Source: Mizuhopecten yessoensis
Lineage: Eukaryota
Direction of reading: 5' to 3'
NCBI RefSeq assembly: GCF_002113885.1
Contig: NW_018406394.1
Span: 112,073 to 176,072 of the forward strand
DNA length: 64,000 bases
In this document: positions 4,682 through 43,700 of the stretch, piece by piece
Layout: every line of letters starts with the position of its first letter
How positions within the stretch are numbered: position 1 is the stretch's first letter
The notes under the pieces: model-generated
Told to the model about the DNA's origin: nothing
What the model saw: the letters and a program-made list of their open reading frames with translations, nothing else
Databases searched by the model: none
Program-made: the position numbers and the translations under genes

Positions 4682-7600
4682 TGTACATTGTGTATATATA
4701 GTAACAGCAGTATAAATAGTTGGACATTGTACATTGTGTATATATAGTAACAGCAGTATAAATAGTTGGACATTGTACATTGTGTATATATAGTAACAGC
4801 AGTATAAATAGTTGGACATTGTACATTGTGTATATATAGTAACAGCAGTATAAATAGTTGGACATTGTACATTGTGTATATATAGTAACAGCAGTATAAA
4901 TAGTTGGACATTGTACATTGTGTATATATAGTAACAGCAGTATAAATAGTTGGACATTGTACATTGTGTATATATAGTAACAGCAGTATAAATAGTTGGA
5001 CATTGTACATTGTGTATATATAGTAACAGCAGTATAAATAGTTGGACATTGTACATTGTGTATATATAGTAACAGCAGTATAAATAGTTGGACATTGTAC
5101 ATTGTGTATATATAGTAACAGCAGTATAAATAGTTGGACATTGTACATTGTGTATATATAGTAACAGCAGTATAAATAGTTGGACATTGTACATTGTGTA
5201 TATATAGTAACAGCAGTATAAATAGTTGGACATTGTACATTGTGTATATATAGTAACAGCAGTATAAATAGTTGGACATTGTACATTGTGTATATATAGT
5301 AACAGCAGTATAAATAGTTGGACATTGTACATTGTGTATATATAGTAACAGCAGTATAAATAGTTGGACATTGTACATTGTGTATATATAGTAACAGCAG
5401 TATAAATAGTTGGACATTGTACATTGTGTATATATAGTAACAGCAGTATAAATAGTTGGACATTGTACATTGTGTATATATAGTAACAGCAGTATAAATA
5501 GTTGGACATTGTACATTGTGTATATATAGTAACAGCAGTATAAATAGTTGGACATTGTACATTGTGTATATATAGTAACAGCAGTATAAATAGTTGGACA
5601 TTGTACATTGTGTATATATAGTAACAGCAGTATAAATAGTTGGACATTGTACATTGTGTATATATAGTAACAGCAGTATAAATAGTTGGACATTGTACAT
5701 TGTGTATATATAGTAACAGCAGTATAAATAGTTGGACATTGTACATTGTGTATATATAGTAACAGCAGTATAAATAGTTGGACATTGTACATTGTGTATA
5801 TATAGTAACAGCAGTATAAATAGTTGGACATTGTACATTGTGTATATATAGTAACAGCAGTATAAATAGTTGGACATTGTACATTGTGTATATATAGTAA
5901 CAGCAGTATAAATAGTTGGACATTGTACATTGTGTATATATAGTAACAGCAGTATAAATAGTTGGACATTGTACATTGTGTATATATAGTAACAGCAGTA
6001 TAAATAGTTGGACATTGTACATTGTGTATATATAGTAACAGCAGTATAAATAGTTGGACATTGTACATTGTGTATATATAGTAACAGCAGTATAAATAGT
6101 TGGACATTGTACATTGTGTATATATAGTAACAGCAGTATAAATAGTTGGACATTGTACATTGTGTATATATAGTAACAGCAGTATAAATAGTTGGACATT
6201 GTACATTGTGTATATATAGTAACAGCAGTATAAATAGTTGGACATTGTACATTGTGTATATATAGTAACAGCAGTATAAATAGTTGGACATTGTACATTG
6301 TGTATATATAGTAACAGCAGTATAAATAGTTGGACATTGTACATTGTGTATATATAGTAACAGCAGTATAAATAGTTGGACATTGTACATTGTGTATATA
6401 TAGTAACAGCAGTATAAATAGTTGGACATTGTACATTGTGTATATATAGTAACAGCAGTATAAATAGTTGGACATTGTACATTGTGTATATATAGTAACA
6501 GCAGTATAAATAGTTGGACATTGTACATTGTGTATATATAGTAACAGCAGTATAAATAGTTGGACATTGTACATTGTGTATATATAGTAACAGCAGTATA
6601 AATAGTTGGACATTGTACATTGTGTATATATAGTAACAGCAGTATAAATAGTTGGACATTGTACATTGTGTATATATAGTAACAGCAGTATAAATAGTTG
6701 GACATTGTACATTGTGTATATATAGTAACAGCAGTATAAATAGTTGGACATTGTACATTGTGTATATATAGTAACAGCAGTATAAATAGTTGGACATTGT
6801 ACATTGTGTATATATAGTAACAGCAGTATAAATAGTTGGACATTGTACATTGTGTATATATAGTAACAGCAGTATAAATAGTTGGACATTGTACATTGTG
6901 TATATATAGTAACAGCAGTATAAATAGTTGGACATTGTACATTGTGTATATATAGTAACAGCAGTATAAATAGTTGGACATTGTACATTGTGTATATATA
7001 GTAACAGCAGTATAAATAGTTGGACATTGTACATTGTGTATATATAGTAACAGCAGTATAAATAGTTGGACATTGTACATTGTGTATATATAGTAACAGC
7101 AGTATAAATAGTTGGACATTGTACATTGTGTATATATAGTAACAGCAGTATAAATAGTTGGACATTGTACATTGTGTATATATAGTAACAGCAGTATAAA
7201 TAGTTGGACATTGTACATTGTGTATATATAGTAACAGCAGTATAAATAGTTGGACATTGTACATTGTGTATATATAGTAACAGCAGTATAAATAGTTGGA
7301 CATTGTACATTGTGTATATATAGTAACAGCAGTATAAATAGTTGGACATTGTACATTGTGTATATATAGTAACAGCAGTATAAATAGTTGGACATTGTAC
7401 ATTGTGTATATATAGTAACAGCAGTATAAATAGTTGGACATTGTACATTGTGTATATATAGTAACAGCAGTATAAATAGTTGGACATTGTACATTGTGTA
7501 TATATAGTAACAGCAGTATAAATAGTTGGACATTGTACATTGTGTATATATAGTAACAGCAGTATAAATAGTTGGACATTGTACATTGTGTATATATAGT

Positions 7601-8262
7601 AACAGCAGTATAAATAGTTGGACATTGTACATTGTGTATATATAGTAACAGCAGTATAAATAGTTGGACATTGTACATTGTGTATATATAGTAACAGCAG
7701 TATAAATAGTTGGACATTGTACATTGTGTATATATAGTAACAGCAGTATAAATAGTTGGACATTGTACATTGTGTATATATAGTAACAGCAGTATAAATA
7801 GTTGGACATTGTACATTGTGTATATATAGTAACAGCAGTATAAATAGTTGGACATTGTACATTGTGTATATATAGTAACAGCAGTATAAATAGTTGGACA
7901 TTGTACATTGTGTATATATAGTAACAGCAGTATAAATAGTTGGACATTGTACATTGTGTATATATAGTAACAGCAGTATAAATAGTTGGACATTGTACAT
8001 TGTGTATATATAGTAACAGCAGTATAAATAGTTGGACATTGTACATTGTGTATATATAGTAACAGCAGTATAAATAGTTGGACATTGTACATTGTGTATA
8101 TATAGTAACAGCAGTATAAATAGTTGGACATTGTACATTGTGTATATATAGTAACAGCAGTATAAATAGTTGGACATTGTACATTGTGTATATATAGTAA
8201 CAGCAGTATAAATAGTTGGACATTGTACATTGTGTATATATAGTAACAGCAGTATAAATAGC
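4682..8262. repeat. Homogeneous 46-bp satellite, ~78 identical copies
   Basis: Unit GTACATTGTGTATATATAGTAACAGCAGTATAAATAGTTGGACATT repeats with no visible variant and starts right after an N at 4681. Confidence 0.98.
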
Positions 8263-29575: not shown

Positions 29576-32043
29576 AGGGAAAAATGCTATTTCTTTGTGT
29601 GTTATTAAGGTTGTATTTTTTTTTTTTTATATTTTCTATGTTGGTCCTTATAGTAATTTATTTATTTATTTTTCAGAGTCAGTCGAAACCGGTTCAGTCA
29701 CAGAAGACTCGAAGGACATTATCAATAAAATAGCATCAGCTAACGTTCAATATGTAGAATTGGCCTATTGGCACTAAATACATATTGTTTCTGTATTAGC
29801 CATACAGAGGTCAAGCTGATCATCATTGATTTTGAAATGTCACAATTGCAACAAAGTAATGACCTATCTTGTATTCCGAGTCAGTTCTAGAACCTGGTAA
29901 GGTTCATCGATGACCGTTGAACTGTACATGTAACACCAATCCTGACACTTTTTAATGGAGGTAGAGTAATTATTGAGGTCCTTGTTAAAATCTTAACGTT
30001 ACCTATTGATATAAATTACCGTATTTTTTCTTATTCTTCAATAAGATTTCCCATTTTTCCGCTGTGTTGTCACGTTGTATGAATATCACTATATGTAATT
30101 ACACTTGCTATGTCCTTGTTTTATCGATTAATATTATTGTTTTTAAATGTGTCTTTTGTCATCTCACTATCAACAAATCACTCGCTCGACAGGATTGCCA
30201 AATGTCTCTACCGTTGCCACCATTGTTAGACTTGTTGATGCATAGAAAGAGGAAGTCTACAATACTTCGGTCGTTCTGCTTTTGCCTTTACACACTGCTA
30301 GAGAGATAAGGACACCACTTCGGTATACGTACTAGACAACAGCCATATAAAATACTGTTGTCTTATAGTTGTACAAAAATGCAACTAAATTGCTGCCTGC
30401 ATAGTGGCAGATACCTTAACACTTCCGGTTACAAAACATGTGTAATTTAATATTGTCACTAAAACATTGTTGTATTATTGCATATCCAATTTAACCTTGT
30501 TAGGTTCCAGTTCTCCGTGTCTGCATTATTCACACAATTACCGCCTGGCTGCTTATTGTAATGTGATTTTGGTCGGACGTGGGAAATATCCATTAATCTT
30601 CCTTAAAGGCCAGTAATGTCGAACCCCTGGTTAACGGGTCCAAGTATCGCCTCGTAAATAAGACGCATCGCCTAGTTACATCACAAATAAACCGGATTCC
30701 ACTGGCTTTAGATCACCTCGATCATCGATATGGTTGTTATTGTTTTTGCAGTTTGACAGTAAAAGATAGTTTCTTGACTGGTGCTGCAACCTTTCGTAAT
30801 AAATAAAGCGTAGAGGTCACACACCTATAGTAACATGAATAGCCCAAGAGCAGCCGTGGACTAATTTTCTCAAGGGTTAATGAGCGCCATACGAGAAGTC
30901 AACACGAGGTGATGATTATTCATGTTTATCGCGCAGTAATACCATTTCCCCTAATTCTTCATCGCCGGAAATTGACTTGTTCACCGTTGTGTAGAATGAT
31001 TATCATGGCGAAAGATTCAAGTCAAATATTAGCATGCAAGCAATCTGTATTTCTCAATCACCTTTTTAATTAGTCATCAACTTTGGAAGCTAATTAGTGG
31101 CAATCAATTTTGGAATTGACAGTTCAGACCCACCTGCGTAAACAAAACTGACATGCAACGTGCAAACAAAAGGCGCAGATAGTTGGCAGATCTGAACATT
31201 AAGACCGGAACATATCCCGTCATTTGTGTCAAATATACGCTCTTCAATATGTGAAGTACCAACAAAATATCCACATAGGATTTCATTGCCTGAGTTGGTT
31301 TTTTCTGCAGGCGTTCTCTTAAAACATCGACATAAGTTTGTTATTAAGAGGGAAACATTACATCGGAATACTGACTAGACTATTTTGTAAATACCTACAT
31401 TCTAATATACATCTTGACACACTTAAACATCTGATATACAGATTCTTGAGTTTAATTTGGCAAACGCTAGTAATGTACGGTAAACAATAGTACATATGAA
31501 TAAATCGTTAGGAGTCTTAAGCTGATATATTTGTAATCGGAAAATGTGTGAATCTTTCTCTCGTTCATATGGTGACGTAACTATATCAAAATGGAAAGTA
31601 CATCATGTTTTTATATACGCATATGTGTTTATTTAAACAAGTGCGGTACATTATCTAATTTTATAAACAAGGGAGTTAAATGTCATGTATTTACATAAAA
31701 AAGTGAAGTTCATTATGAACATGTATGTTTAAACGATGCATGTTTATCTCCATTATGGGCGTTGGTTCTGAACAAACAAGTGTTCGTTCGATGCGTAATA
31801 CATATAAAGATATATAAGCAAAAGAGTACTAGCGACAGTGCAGACTAAGGAATATGTAATTGTTTGAGGCAATCCGATCCGCCCCTTTATCAAGACAGAA
31901 ACATAATTACAAATGTATGTATCACAACAGAGATAGTCAGCATAAAACAATGCTATATCACAAAATACATAACAGAAAACTAGTTAGTACGTATTCCGTC
32001 TTTGCGTATTGCAGAGTTATCTTCTCTTGTGAGCAGGTATTGA

Positions 32044-32129
32044 TTGTTACGTCATAGGTTTGTGTGAGAAAATGACGTCGTTTTCTCAACAATTGATGAC
32101 GTTACTCTCACAAACAAATGACGTAACAA
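32044..32129. repeat. Imperfect inverted repeat (25-bp arms, 22/25 match) with four TGACGT motifs
   Basis: TTGTTACGTCATAGGTTTGTGTGAG pairs with CTCTCACAAACAAATGACGTAACAA. Confidence 0.8.
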
Positions 32130-34360
32130 CGATGCTAAAAATTTTTAGAGATATGCGAAACACAGTTATTGACCTTGTAAGAGAAGCTAAGCAAAAATAT
32201 CTACTTAAACTCCAAAATTCCCTTATTGACAAATCTATTCCTCCAGGTAAGTGGTGGCGGGTTGCAAAGTCTATTATGAACATTAACAATAAATCAAACA
32301 ATGATGCTCCTCTTGTAATAAATGGTGAACTTAAATCACATCCTGTGGATAAAGCAGAATCTTTTAATTCATACTTCACCTCTGTCTCTACTTCTGACAA
32401 AACTGACCTTGACATTCCTCCTAATTGTCCTATCTCACAAGAAAAATTATCTTCCATTATTATCACTGAACAGGATGTTAATGATCAGCTCCAACTTATT
32501 AATGTAAAAAAAACTGCTGGTCCAGATGCACTTCCCCCTTATTTTATTAAAGGTATTGCTGACTCTCTTGTAAAGCCCTTACTGTTAATTTTTAACAAAT
32601 CCATATCCACTGGTTGCATACCTAATATTTGGAAGTGTGCTAATGTTACCCCAATATATAAGGGCAAGGGAGGAAGAGGTGACCCCAGTAACTATAGACC
32701 AATCTCTGTCACATCGTTATTTAGTAAACTTCTTGAAAAAATAGTTTTTAAACATCTCTTTAATTTTCTATCTGAGAATAATGTTATATCAAAAAATCAG
32801 TCTGGCTTCCTTCCAAATGACTCCACAGTTAACCAATTAATATATTTATATGATGAAGCTTCAAAACAACTTGATCAAGGAAAAGAGGCAAGGATAGTAT
32901 TTTGTGACATCAGCAAAGCTTTTGACAGGGTTTGGCACAGTGGATTGATTTACAAATTGAAGAAATATGGAATTTGTGACGACGTTTTGAACTGGATTCA
33001 TTGCTATCTTACTGATAGACAACAAAGGGTATTAGTAGATGGCTACAAGTCAAATTTACAAACATTAAAAGCTGGTGTACCCCAAGGCTCGGTTCTCGGG
33101 CCTTATTTATTTTTAATATTTATTAATGACCTAGAAGATGAACTCCAATCCCATGTCAAACTCTTTGCTGATGACACTTCTCTTTACGTTTTGATAGATG
33201 GTGACGGCAGACATGCTGCAGATATTCTCAATGAGGATTTAAGGAGAATGTCTCTCTGGGCTGATAAATGGGGAATATCATTTAATCCAAGTAAAACTGA
33301 ATCATTACTAATGTCTAATAAAAATAATTCTGAGACATCTCATCCAGATTTGGTATTCTCAAATAGTGTCGTTATAAATGTCAAAAATCATAAACATCTT
33401 GGTCTGCTTTTTAATAGTCGTGGATCATGGTCTGATCAAGTTAATTATATATATGGAAAAAGCTGTACAAAACTACAAATAATGCGAATGCTCAAACACA
33501 AGCTAGATAGAAAATCTCTTGAAATAATTTATAAATCTTTTATAAGACCAACACTTGAATATGCTTGTGCTGTGTGGAATAATTGCACCCAGGGTGAAAG
33601 TGACTTATTGGAATCAGTCCAATTAGAATGTCTCAGAATTATATCAGGTTTGAGAAGAGGTACAAGTCATAACTTAATATATAAGGAAGTTGGGGTAGAT
33701 AAACTAAAAATAAGACGTGATAATTACCAATGTATATTATTTTTCAAGATACTGCAGCATGACTGTCCTGACCATCTTTATGATTGTATCCTACCATATT
33801 TTAATAATGATATTAATCCTCGCCTTAGACATCATAGAAACTTTATTGTTCCCTTGTGCAGAACCAACTTGTATAAAAATAGTTTTTTTCCTAGAATGAT
33901 GTCTCTATGGAATAGGCCAGACTGTATTTTTCCAAAACTCACTACATTGAGCCAGTTAAAACTGGAATTACTTAAGGAAAGCACATACGTTTTGCAACCA
34001 TCTAACTGTACGGATATTTTTAAATACGGTGGCTCCAGGAAGTTGAATATAACTTTATGTCAACTACGGAATAAAGTCAGCCAATTAAAATCAGATTTAT
34101 ATAATGATCATCTTACAGATAATCCTAAGTGTGACTGTGGTTTTATTATTGAAGATGCAAATCACTTCTTCCTCAATTGCCCCAAATATATAGATGAAAG
34201 ACAAGTTTTATTCAATGCTTTATCTAATTACAACGAAATTGACAACATCATCTTAAATACAGTTACTTTCACTACGGGTGATATGAACCTTAGCAGTGAA
34301 TCAAATAAATTTATTCTCTCATGTGTTCTGGAGTTTATTGACAAATCTGGAAGATTTTAA
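32060..34360 (+). CDS. Non-LTR retrotransposon ORF2 (CR1/L2-type reverse transcriptase), 5'-truncated, no endonuclease domain
   Basis: Motifs KKTAGPD, NYRPIS, QSGF, DISKAFDRVWH, GVPQGSVLGP, LFADD, HKHLG and C-terminal CDCG..EDANHFFLNC; 766 codons without a stop. Confidence 0.95.
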   Translation: MCEKMTSFSQQLMTLLSQTNDVTTMLKIFRDMRNTVIDLVREAKQKYLLKLQNSLIDKSIPPGKWWRVAKSIMNINNKSNNDAPLVINGELKSHPVDKAESFNSYFTSVSTSDKTDLDIPPNCPISQEKLSSIIITEQDVNDQLQLINVKKTAGPDALPPYFIKGIADSLVKPLLLIFNKSISTGCIPNIWKCANVTPIYKGKGGRGDPSNYRPISVTSLFSKLLEKIVFKHLFNFLSENNVISKNQSGFLPNDSTVNQLIYLYDEASKQLDQGKEARIVFCDISKAFDRVWHSGLIYKLKKYGICDDVLNWIHCYLTDRQQRVLVDGYKSNLQTLKAGVPQGSVLGPYLFLIFINDLEDELQSHVKLFADDTSLYVLIDGDGRHAADILNEDLRRMSLWADKWGISFNPSKTESLLMSNKNNSETSHPDLVFSNSVVINVKNHKHLGLLFNSRGSWSDQVNYIYGKSCTKLQIMRMLKHKLDRKSLEIIYKSFIRPTLEYACAVWNNCTQGESDLLESVQLECLRIISGLRRGTSHNLIYKEVGVDKLKIRRDNYQCILFFKILQHDCPDHLYDCILPYFNNDINPRLRHHRNFIVPLCRTNLYKNSFFPRMMSLWNRPDCIFPKLTTLSQLKLELLKESTYVLQPSNCTDIFKYGGSRKLNITLCQLRNKVSQLKSDLYNDHLTDNPKCDCGFIIEDANHFFLNCPKYIDERQVLFNALSNYNEIDNIILNTVTFTTGDMNLSSESNKFILSCVLEFIDKSGRF

Positions 34361-40080: not shown

Positions 40081-40165
40081 AGTTTATTTACCCCTCACAG
40101 TCTCTCTTCCTCTCAATCTGCTACTCTCTTCCTGCTCTACAATTAAGCCCCTCCTAGTCTACACT

Positions 40166-40799
40166 CCCGACCCCTGCAGGTGGGGGATCGGGAAAAGATT
40201 ACACCTGCTGTTACCCACTGCATGAATCGTAGGAGGCGACTAATGAAGGGAATCCCCTGCAGAATTGGAGATTTGCTTTGGTGTCCTCAATTTGGGGACA
40301 CAAAGGCGACCAAAATAAATCTGCTGCACCCATTGCAATATTTGGGACCTTTATCTTTCTTTCTACTTCTAGCTATCTTTTATTCTCTAGTACCTTGCTT
40401 GGCAACACCTCACTTTTGGCCTTAATGTTGAACGTTCGCCAAGGTGAGGAAAGCAATGGGTTCTTTCCCCAGGCCGGAACATACCTAAGTCCTTAAAAAT
40501 GGTAGTTGTTATTCCCTGCTTAACGTTCAGCATTTAGGGGAATGGCAACAACTGGTTCACCCGTTGTCAGTATAATGTGAATGGGCGGAATGCTGTGCTG
40601 GGTGCCTTCGGCTTGGTATTTCAGTGAGAAAAACCTTTTAAGTCGGCATCAGATCCGCGCTATCACAAGGAGGCAAGCACACAGACATACCTTGTCTCCT
40701 ACATACACACATGCAAGTACGCATACACTTCACACATGGAGGCACGTCCTTAAATGACCTAAGCTGTTAATAGGACGTTAAAAAAAAAAAAAAAAAACA
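40166..40799 (+). mobile_element. Composite non-autonomous retroelement: structured RTE-like leader, decayed tRNA head, Meta-domain-like core, hairpin tail and poly(A), with 10-bp TSD
   Basis: TSD AGTCTACACT at 40156-40165 and 40800-40809; TCGTAGGAGGCGACTAA at 40227; degenerate A/B boxes ~40417-40470; AAAAATGGTAGTTG..TTCCCTGCTT..CGTTCAGCATT and GTCAGTATAATGTGA; tail CACGTCCTTAAATGACC.AGCTGTTAATAGGACGT(A)n. Confidence 0.8.
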
Positions 40800-43700
40800 A
40801 GTCTACACTTCCCCACAGTCTGCTACCTCCTTTCCACTCTAAAAACCCCTCCAAGTCAATAACCGACCTAAAAATCTACTAACCCCTCACAGTATATCAC
40901 CCTCTCAGTCTACTTCCCTCTTTTTACTCCGGCTACAAGCCCCTCCAGCTCCGCTCGTCCCCATCCTACCAGGCCCTTCCACACTACTGTACCAGACTTT
41001 GTACAACACCCTCTCAGTCCAGCAACCCCCTCTCAGTCAACCCCTTTCTTCATTACTTAGGTCACAAAATATAATTTCCTCTAATTCCATTTTCCCATTC
41101 AGTGTACGGTAACAATAAGAAGCTAGAATGGCCCCTGTCTCGAGAATATTGAATTATTTAGAAGAAAAAAATACTGTAATAGTTTTTGATCACTTGGATG
41201 TCTGATTAGGGGGAGATGCAAAGTAAGGTACATGTAGCTGTGAAATGCAGCTGAGAAATTCTTTATAAAAACTAAGGGTTGGTACATATAGCCAGTCTAA
41301 TGGAAGCTCGCACAGCTTACACAGTGTATACAGACAATGACAATCCGCAGCCATCCGTCAATACCGGTCCATGCATTAATTTACGATGAAAAACTCAATG
41401 TTATCCATAATTGTCTCGTTACTAATGTCATCAGATTACCTCGTATAGACAGACAGACTAAAACGTTCTACACGTAGAGCGTCCCTACACAATTGTGATT
41501 TATTTTCCCTAAGGAAATGTATGTCTACTGGTATTTTTTGTTAGAAAGCGCATGTCTATTTTTGGAATAGAAAAACGTATGGTTTTCAGGGTTCATAGTG
41601 ATACTAACGTGTACAGTTTGAGATGTTATAACAGATATTTTATATTGTGTATATAAGACTTTATGGTAAATGAGAATGCCGACTGAAAATTGCGAACTCC
41701 ACGAAGAGAATATTGAATTTGTAAATCGAAGGCATTCACATTAACTATACGTACTTTATTTTGTATTACATATTTTACTGGTACATGTACAATGACTGGA
41801 CAAATTACATACTTCAGTTATTTTTATGCAATGTTACGTTTCTTTTACTTTTTAAACGAATTTCGAATAAGTAGACATCAAAACAGTTTAAATAAAAGAT
41901 AAATCCATTGCAAGAAAAATATGAAAAACAACTATAAAAAATCGATATCTTGGTATTAGTTGCTGTACAATAAAAAGATGTTTAATGGGATATGGGAGAA
42001 TGATTCTACAATAACCACCAGTTTATATCAATCCATAGGCTGCATACTGTTTACCCTTATTTCTAATAAACCAGCATAATTAAACGAATTCCTGTCAGTA
42101 ACCGCGCCAATGGTTCAGGAACCAATCAAAACGGTGACCAAGTTAAATAAGGCTCATAAACCGACCTAGTCACGGACTGAAAAATCGACCGACTGTTTGT
42201 ATGTTTGTTCGAGTGGTTTTACGTCCATCGACCGATCAGTCACTAGGTTTATATATAGTAATTACAGGACTACTAAATAGCAGTATAAACTGTTAGTAAC
42301 CTTCCATCAACTCTACTGCTTAACCAGATTACGTGTGTTTAGTATATATGTTTCCTTTCAGTAACAATAGCTGTGTAGATGGGCTTTAAGTATAACCATG
42401 GTAAATGTGTATCGACTTCTGTCTTGAAGTTGTTCGTGATCCATAATCTTTGTATTGTATTTTTAACCAATCCTTGTTTACTAAGGTCAGCAAAAATACC
42501 ATTGTACAATTACAGCATAACGATGCGCTGTCGTTGGAAACGGAATTCCTGGTCCTTTATTTCATTTGTACAGTTCCTCATGCGACATGCCTAGACAAAA
42601 AGCAATAAAACATGACTTTTCAATGATAATTTTGTACGACAGGCATATGTACGGGAACAAACAAAAACGCCATTGCTCATAACAGAATGGTAATTTCCAT
42701 GCAAATACGGTGTATGTAATATCTGTTACAAGTCCGAGGACATGTATTTTTATATCTGTACAATTTTAACCGAGAAGTTCAAACAAAGGACAACTATCAG
42801 TAGGAAACAAAATTCTTTATATAGAGTTGTCATTTTGATTAAATTGCATGTGTCGTCATGGCGTTTCTAACGTGTCTTACGAACGTTTTCTGTTTTTTGA
42901 ATGGTTATACTCGAAATCTGAGTGATATTTCCATTAATTGGTTAGTGTTTCTGGTTTTGCGCAATATGTATTACAAGTATACAGTTAAGCAACAGAGATC
43001 AATAGCATACTGAACAAAGCGAGATAACTCTTACGAGTTTATATAACTATCTAAACACCACAGTACAACTACCAATGCATTTTGTTTTGAGTACAGATGA
43101 GGATTTCATAATATGTTTTTTTTAAATTGATCCACTAGACGGTTTTCCCACAATGCAATGAATTTTTCGAGAAAATGGTTTAATTTCTACAGGTGTTGTA
43201 TAATCTATTACACAGAATAGCTACAGTCGGAACATTTGGGTGGATGAAACTTTTCATTATTTTGTCAAACACAGCTGTTAATATTGGCTTCGTTATACTC
43301 TAATAATTTTATGTCAATCCATGTTGTTTCTGCTGGAGTAAGTAAAAATAATATCAAATAGGTTGACTTAAACGGTACATTTTTGAACTGCTATGTTCAA
43401 ACACAGAATTATTGAAGTCCGTGGTCATAATAGTAACCATCACTTTTGTATTTTATAACTGAAGTTTTTCCTACAACAGTGCCTTGATTAAATTGGAAGT
43501 TATATCACCGCATCATTCCTTTAGTAGAGGTATATTTCCGCCTTTATACACTGTATGACAAATCCGTATAATGTGATACACTGTTTACATGGAAAAGTGT
43601 GTAAGGCATGTCTATGTAAGCGTTTCTAAAACCTTGCTGACTTTGGTTAGAAATATCTTACCTATGTCTATACAATCCCGTTACAATGTTTTTAGAATCA

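Follow-up and report, generated by a model that had tools for sequence, protein, structure and literature searches.

Structure of the SINE copy

The window, i.e., the whole stretch of 64,000 nucleotides of DNA that was analysed, carries a SINE copy at 40166-40799, which is located in a C/A-rich degenerate repeat region. Its parts are as follows:

40156..40165, + strand: left target-site duplication (TSD), exact 10 nt AGTCTACACT; if one difference is allowed, it extends to 40168 (about 13 nt)
40169..40252, + strand: LP head, predicted double pseudoknot
40171-74/40183-86, + strand: head helix S1
40175, + strand: single-U loop of the head
40176-82/40202-08, + strand: head helix S2
40196-201, + strand: A-rich linker of the head
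40209-10/40221-22, + strand: head helix S3
40214-18 with ~40245-50, + strand: head helix S4, whose pairing is decayed in the window copy
40227-29/40237-39, + strand: head hairpin S5, enclosing the invariant core
40240-43, + strand: CTAA of the head
40227-40243, + strand: leader motif TCGTAGGAGGCGACTAA
40254..40347, + strand: second head copy, decayed, identified by alignment to the head and not present in the ~535-nt sister family
40348..40409, + strand: CT-rich tract, in agreement with the published tract
40410..40481, + strand: tRNA-derived region, decayed
40417-40427, + strand: degenerate A box TGGCCTTAATG
40459-40469, + strand: degenerate B box GGTTCTTTCCC
40482..40660 (approximate limits), + strand: Meta/MESC core and the next bivalve-shared segment, from by-eye comparison with BivaMeta-SINE1 and pectinoid MESC copies
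40661..40747, + strand: CA-rich 3' body, also in the sister family
40748..40799, + strand: Nimb/I-type tail; its terminal A18CA, specific to the window copy, replaces the AAACC repeats of the family
40800..40809, + strand: right TSD AGTCTACACT, exact

Exact matches to AGTCTACACT occur twice in the window, at the two flanks only. This duplication, the degenerate boxes and the TCGTAGGAGGCGACTAA motif are present where the initial annotation had placed them, and the duplication does bracket the element; the start proposed at 40166, however, is replaced by 40169/40170, where the family begins. What had been described as a 250-nt leader is composed of three parts, namely the head, the decayed second head, and the CT-rich tract. 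Alignment of the second head to the head scored 53, which was reached by none of 1000 shuffles, with a narrow margin over the best shuffle (49). The second head keeps pairing like that of S1, S2, S3, and S4, has a hairpin inserted in the linker, and is without the invariant core. Elsewhere in the window, a 46-bp tandem array (4682-8261, 78 copies, 100% matches) and an open frame of 775 codons (32033-34360, + strand) were also observed.

The family in the window's genome

Leader and core were each searched against the window's genome (G000), giving 4261 and 4901 first-look candidates, respectively, which are not copy numbers. All of the 29 best leader matches (top-scoring only) cross the leader-SINE junction and start within 4 nt of one position, and 25 of them reach the tail. 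Among the 25 best core matches, the leader is complete to the start in 17, while eight begin inside the leader and none at the tRNA head. The family unit of ~631 nt runs from the leader through the decayed tRNA head and the Meta/MESC core to the tail, and the copies have a median identity to the majority sequence of 93.4% (92.6% for the window copy). TSDs were found in 14 of the 26 copies (of 55) that could be parsed at both ends, with a gap of -2 to +2 to the first base. The earlier proposal that leader and SINE were mobilised as one unit is borne out by the 29 junction-crossing matches and the TSDs of other copies. A chimera that arose only once, or two repeats adjoining by chance, as the C/A-rich surroundings might suggest, has a negligible probability and is refuted by this co-occurrence and by the independent TSDs.

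The 3' ends of the 54 other loci carry AAACC-type repeats in 44 cases and other sequences in five, while the tail is missing in five; runs of 12 or more A were found at none of these 54 ends. The A18CA run is therefore private to the window copy, so that the poly(A) tail noted initially is present here but is not a family feature. The A and B boxes lie 250 nt inside the element, not at its 5' end. GTTCRA is found in the B box of none of 55 copies, and no tRNA was called at any of seven loci; the Pol III boxes are dead throughout the family, as had been suspected from this single copy, and the intact 5'-end A and B boxes of canonical tRNA-derived (Pol III) SINEs are lacking. RNA-seq reads cover the element in all raw RNA runs mapped. 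In these unstranded, randomly fragmented libraries, read starts do not pile up at the 5' end of the element, and upstream flank is carried by 34-38 reads per run in two runs.

A sister family of ~535 nt with a single head was also observed, which is younger (copies 97-98% identical; L061-L063, L081, L083, L087), and several of its copies have 1-3 variable extra bases between TSD and helix S1. Small families with 2-3 tandem heads and a Nimb-like tail, but no tRNA part, are present at loci L096:440-900 and L097:340-850.

Relationship to LP-SINEs and other SINEs

The scallop MESC SINEs reported by Matetovici et al. (2016; PMC4758252), which measure 520 bp and were named LP-SINEs, consist of a LINE-derived head of 68 bp, a CT-rich tract of 88 bp, a tRNA region, and the MESC domain. 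The 68-bp head was reported to resemble Nimb-17_LMi, I-3_DR, and RTE-9_CPB, and was proposed to be a promoter, a proposal untested in that text. The window family likewise possesses a ~68-nt Nimb-17-like head at its 5' end, which aligns with the head of the sister family, followed in the same order by a CT-rich tract, a tRNA-derived region with the same B-box variant, and the MESC domain, and it has variable TSDs and terminal short repeats. Unlike the published SINEs (~520 bp, single head), it is 631 nt long with a second decayed head, the additional ~95-100 nt aligning to the head itself. The core motif has 2073 exact matches in G000 (control, 0), and the published 520-bp copies, as far as given in the available text, match by eye the ~535-nt sister family in several of 30 core-motif loci. 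We therefore assign the window element, with little doubt, to a long, head-duplicated subfamily of the pectinoid MESC/Meta LP-SINE; its length and second head are a subfamily difference. The match to the published SINEs also suggests a scallop-type bivalve as host.

The initial annotation had suggested an undescribed hybrid family and had itself named a catalogued element of this structure as evidence to the contrary; the SINE architecture is already in print, and the head-duplicated subfamily is a variant of it. Compared by text and aligned copies, the available text of PMC4758252 proposes the promoter and does not give structure, covariation, or viral copies.

The body of the element matches BivaMeta-SINE1 by eye (PMC4824008). 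With this member of the MetaSINE superfamily, as described in the text available, it shares a tRNA-like head followed by a Meta domain and a Nimb-type tail, whereas MetaSINEs start at the tRNA head and have intact boxes. The nine Pectinida rows of a 2024 bivalve table (PMC11481361) include no Meta element and no entry with a length close to 630 nt. The element is also distinct from an RTE-derived bipartite SINE (RTE 5' part plus RTE 3' tail), because the LINE that its tail matches possesses ORF1 and RNase H, and because its head is also found on Nimb-type LINEs. The idea of a LINE-type 5' module added to a SINE is thus supported, while its attribution to RTE is not: the module is not RTE-specific, and the tail matches a Nimb/I LINE.

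A probable partner LINE and an HDV-like fold in the same slot

A young, intact I/Nimb-type LINE family of ~5.95 kb was identified in G000 (loci L260-L279; copies up to 99.9% identical), encoding an ORF1 of 479-497 aa and an ORF2 of 1222 aa with APE, RT, and RNase H. An example copy is given below:

G000:C4108:125000-134800, - strand: Nimb LINE copy

Over its last ~50 nt, the SINE shares 75-77% identity with the 3' end of this LINE. Judged from the shared tail, the SINE is likely mobilised by a Nimb/I-clade LINE, and this intact family is its likely partner.

The first ~125 nt of the G000 Nimb LINE fit the HDV-like ribozyme descriptor (P1, 6/6 pairs; P2, 7/7 pairs), and the fold was not detected by Rfam. 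The full descriptor was found in 14 of 30 Nimb-LINE UTR loci (of 94 in total), and the LP head in none of these 30. The six ribozyme-bearing clades listed in the available text of PMC5786205 do not include Nimb.

The LP head precedes LINE ORF1 in loci L141, L326, and L330, and occurs in SINEs and Nimb LINEs of other animals. L326 and L330 are Nimb-type LINEs, the ORF1 of which is 41% and 37% identical to that of the G000 Nimb LINE. In both, the LP head directly precedes a UTR motif that follows the HDV-like fold in the G000 Nimb LINE; therefore, homologous LINEs have one or the other of two different RNA folds in one slot. In G000, no autonomous LINE with an LP head was found in 10 extended loci, in 30 of 55 variant-core loci (1.5 kb read each), or in 30 of 94 Nimb-UTR loci. 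At L111, L127, L130, and L139, a SINE of another animal has the head joined directly to tRNA-like sequence.

Conserved structure of the LP head

Scans with the 17-nt core returned at least 120 metagenome stretches, five and later four and 13 viral matches, and nine genome-contig matches. Heads were anchored on the A-rich hexamer and the core, by which 127 of 171 matches were parsed. Heads from unrelated families share one order of elements: S1 (4-5 bp), one U, S2 (7 bp, formed by the S1 loop with sequence downstream), a variable linker, S3 (2-4 bp) immediately after S2, S4, which crosses S3, and a hairpin of 3 bp enclosing an invariant loop. The head is predicted to fold as a double pseudoknot.

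In an unfitted MAFFT alignment of 20 heads, 39 of 40 S3 cells are paired with 16 double-sided changes, a result reached in none of 500 shuffles, and slid registers pair at 10-59%. S2 is 77.6% paired in 14 non-viral heads despite three misregistered rows among the 14, and four of its seven pairs have changes on both sides. The partner-swap test with 24 representatives gave 0/20000 permutations for each of S1, S2, and S3 and a weaker 327/20000 for S4, numbers to be read with the representatives and the S1/S2 register having been picked by eye, and with kinship of sequences inflating shuffle tests; an earlier, looser parse of 21 heads gave 0/20000 for S2-S4. S4 is weak in three viral copies. S5 never varies across heads, the core is invariant in all 20 aligned heads except for two purine positions, and the positions that vary least are found 45-60 nt downstream of the 5' end. 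The covariation argues strongly that the LP head is a conserved structured RNA, which we regard as highly probable.

Two Rfam searches returned no match to the head, only weak miRNA/snoRNA hits. HDV-like ribozymes have the nested helix order P1/P1.1/P2/P3/P4, P3-L3, and a G at +1, which the head does not share. An HDV-like reading was rejected, as there is no P3/L3 and any P1 assignment puts the cut 30 nt inside retained sequence. Twister and permuted twister were also rejected, the head having no matching helices. The head resembles the HDV-like and twister ribozymes of R2, L1Tc, RTE, and Perere-3, as described in the available texts, in being a structured RNA at the first base of the element, beside the TSD (PMC6765202, PMC8501958), but differs from them in helix order. 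In PMC10085705, no twister candidates other than circular ones are reported.

Occurrence of the head in viruses

With a model built from 14 retroelement heads only, six viral contigs score 38-65 bits, scores that are partly circular since all homologues were collected via the invariant core. Five are distinct, RNA-virus-like contigs with RdRp or capsid ORFs (Pfam hits in four, none in the fifth) and with the head in the 3' UTR of tombus-/noda-like viruses, the core lying 53-151 nt past the last stop, at a distance of 44-136 nt from the end of the contig; one of them has a second head copy in tandem. The sixth is a DNA virus contig of 212 kb, in which the head is intergenic, ~150 nt upstream of an ORF. 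Of the 13 matches of a looser viral scan, six, which score 15 bits or less, are matches to coding DNA by chance, and seven are contigs already found; a phage collection gave no head match. Because it occurs in the 3' UTRs of RNA viruses, besides the intergenic copy in the DNA virus, the head must act as RNA.

The head motif was also present in nine prokaryote genome contigs (L323-L331), two of which have LINE ORF1 downstream; these heads are likely eukaryotic host contamination of the assemblies. In L324 and L329, the head is followed by what we take to be a motif of RTE/Rex3 5' UTRs that lies downstream of twister ribozymes; this motif is found neither in G000 nor in the viral contigs. A swap of the LP head with twister may be considered a lead.

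In the searchable text of mainly open-access literature, the head structure, viral copies, and the HDV-like swap were not found.

Possible function of the head

In more than 10 unrelated families, the first base lies 0-3 nt ahead of helix S1, and the head likely sets where the RNA's 5' end lies, in place of a promoter. The initial annotation had the leader replacing Pol III initiation, which implies a promoter, whereas covariation and the RNA-virus copies argue for a function at the RNA level. On the same evidence, an internal Pol II promoter in the head, as put forward for LP-SINEs in 2016, with any pairing being incidental or secondary, is very unlikely: covariation in three helices would not be expected of a DNA promoter, nor would its retention in RNA-virus 3' UTRs. 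The position at +1 of LINEs and SINEs is consistent with a promoter, which was put forward but left untested in the available text of PMC4758252, where L1Tc Pr77 is described as both promoter and ribozyme.

Making or protecting a 5' end would be a function in keeping with both locations of the head, at the first base of a retroelement and where a viral 3' UTR starts. We tentatively propose, with somewhat less than even confidence, that the head fixes the 5' end of the element after transcription, most probably by stalling 5'-3' exonucleases. We infer that SINE copies are transcribed by read-through within host Pol II transcripts, for which a working Pol III promoter would be unnecessary. Decay from the 5' side would then trim the host sequence up to the first pseudoknot, where the head may resist the exonuclease. 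The protected unit-length RNA would be captured via its tail by the LINE reverse transcriptase and inserted with a TSD, yielding full-length copies that start 0-3 nt before S1.

An exonuclease block is favoured because xrRNAs sit in viral 3' UTRs, occur in tandem, halt Xrn1 at the first helix, and spare the genome. Tandem xrRNAs occur in flaviviruses. In the available texts, xrRNAs sit just after the stop codon in viral 3' UTRs (PMC8374639), and those of class 3 stop Xrn1 at the base of P1 (PMC12397905). Viral xrRNAs (classes 1-3 and coremin) are pseudoknotted, as is predicted for the head, and like it lie just after the stop and sometimes in tandem (PMC8374639, PMC12397905, PMC10520033). However, classes 1-3 are described as a three-way junction with double pseudoknot, or a P1/P2 stem-loop with apical pseudoknot (PMC12397905), from which the predicted fold of the head differs, as does its sequence, and the head also occurs in retrotransposons; the core strings are not present in PMC10520033. 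Also against a block, invariant letters 45-60 nt downstream suit a catalytic core or binding site as well, and the RNA-seq data have flank-bearing reads and no 5'-end start peak, in libraries that are weak either way. No precedent for a cellular xrRNA was found in the literature passages covered.

Alternatively, the head would be an undescribed self-cleaving ribozyme, its cut immediately 5' of S1 releasing the element from read-through transcripts in the manner of HDV-like and twister ribozymes in other non-LTR elements; we consider this rather unlikely. The head does fill the slot of the HDV-like fold in homologous Nimb LINEs, its core is nearly invariant, and the internal second head has lost exactly this core, which would be expected if cleavage inside the element did harm; precedents in the available texts are twister variants at the 5' ends of Perere-3 and ribozymes in linear RNA-virus UTRs, mostly 5' (PMC8501958, PMC6765202, bioRxiv 2024.05.16.594327). 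However, cutting in an RNA-virus 3' UTR would sever the end of the genome, and neither an Rfam match nor the P3/L3 segment of HDV-like ribozymes is present. Junction nucleotides at the 5' end are not conserved between families, and the junction is therefore unlike a typical cleavage site.

The location in tombus-/noda-like 3' UTRs and ~150 nt upstream of the DNA-virus ORF, together with the invariant loop sequence, would also suit binding of ribosomes or initiation factors, i.e., an element for cap-independent translation in the 3' UTRs of viruses and the 5' UTRs of LINEs. SINEs would then keep the head to dock near nascent LINE protein, as does Alu, which docks through SRP9/14. The HDV-like ribozymes of R2 and L1Tc are also thought to aid translation, according to the available texts (PMC8501958, PMC6765202, bioRxiv 2024.05.16.594327). 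We regard this explanation as unlikely, and alone it does not explain why more than 10 unrelated families start 0-3 nt before S1; it could be a second role of the head rather than an alternative.

Taken together, we lean slightly towards the LP head being an undescribed mobile RNA that defines 5' ends, by nuclease block or as a ribozyme, is common to SINEs, Nimb/RTE LINEs, positive-strand RNA viruses, and a large DNA virus, and is interchangeable with HDV-like folds.

Implications

How LP-SINEs, as well as many I/Nimb and RTE LINEs, acquire their 5' ends was left open in 2016; with a 75-nt structure defined, for which natural compensatory variants exist, this question becomes testable. According to the available text of a review (PMC8374639), a cellular xrRNA is still being sought. 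If the proposed function is true, the head would be a cellular xrRNA or a new class of ribozyme, a module of RNA that moves between retrotransposons and RNA viruses, and retrotransposons could drop promoters altogether; in the case of a nuclease block, an xrRNA would be encoded in animal genomes in thousands of copies.
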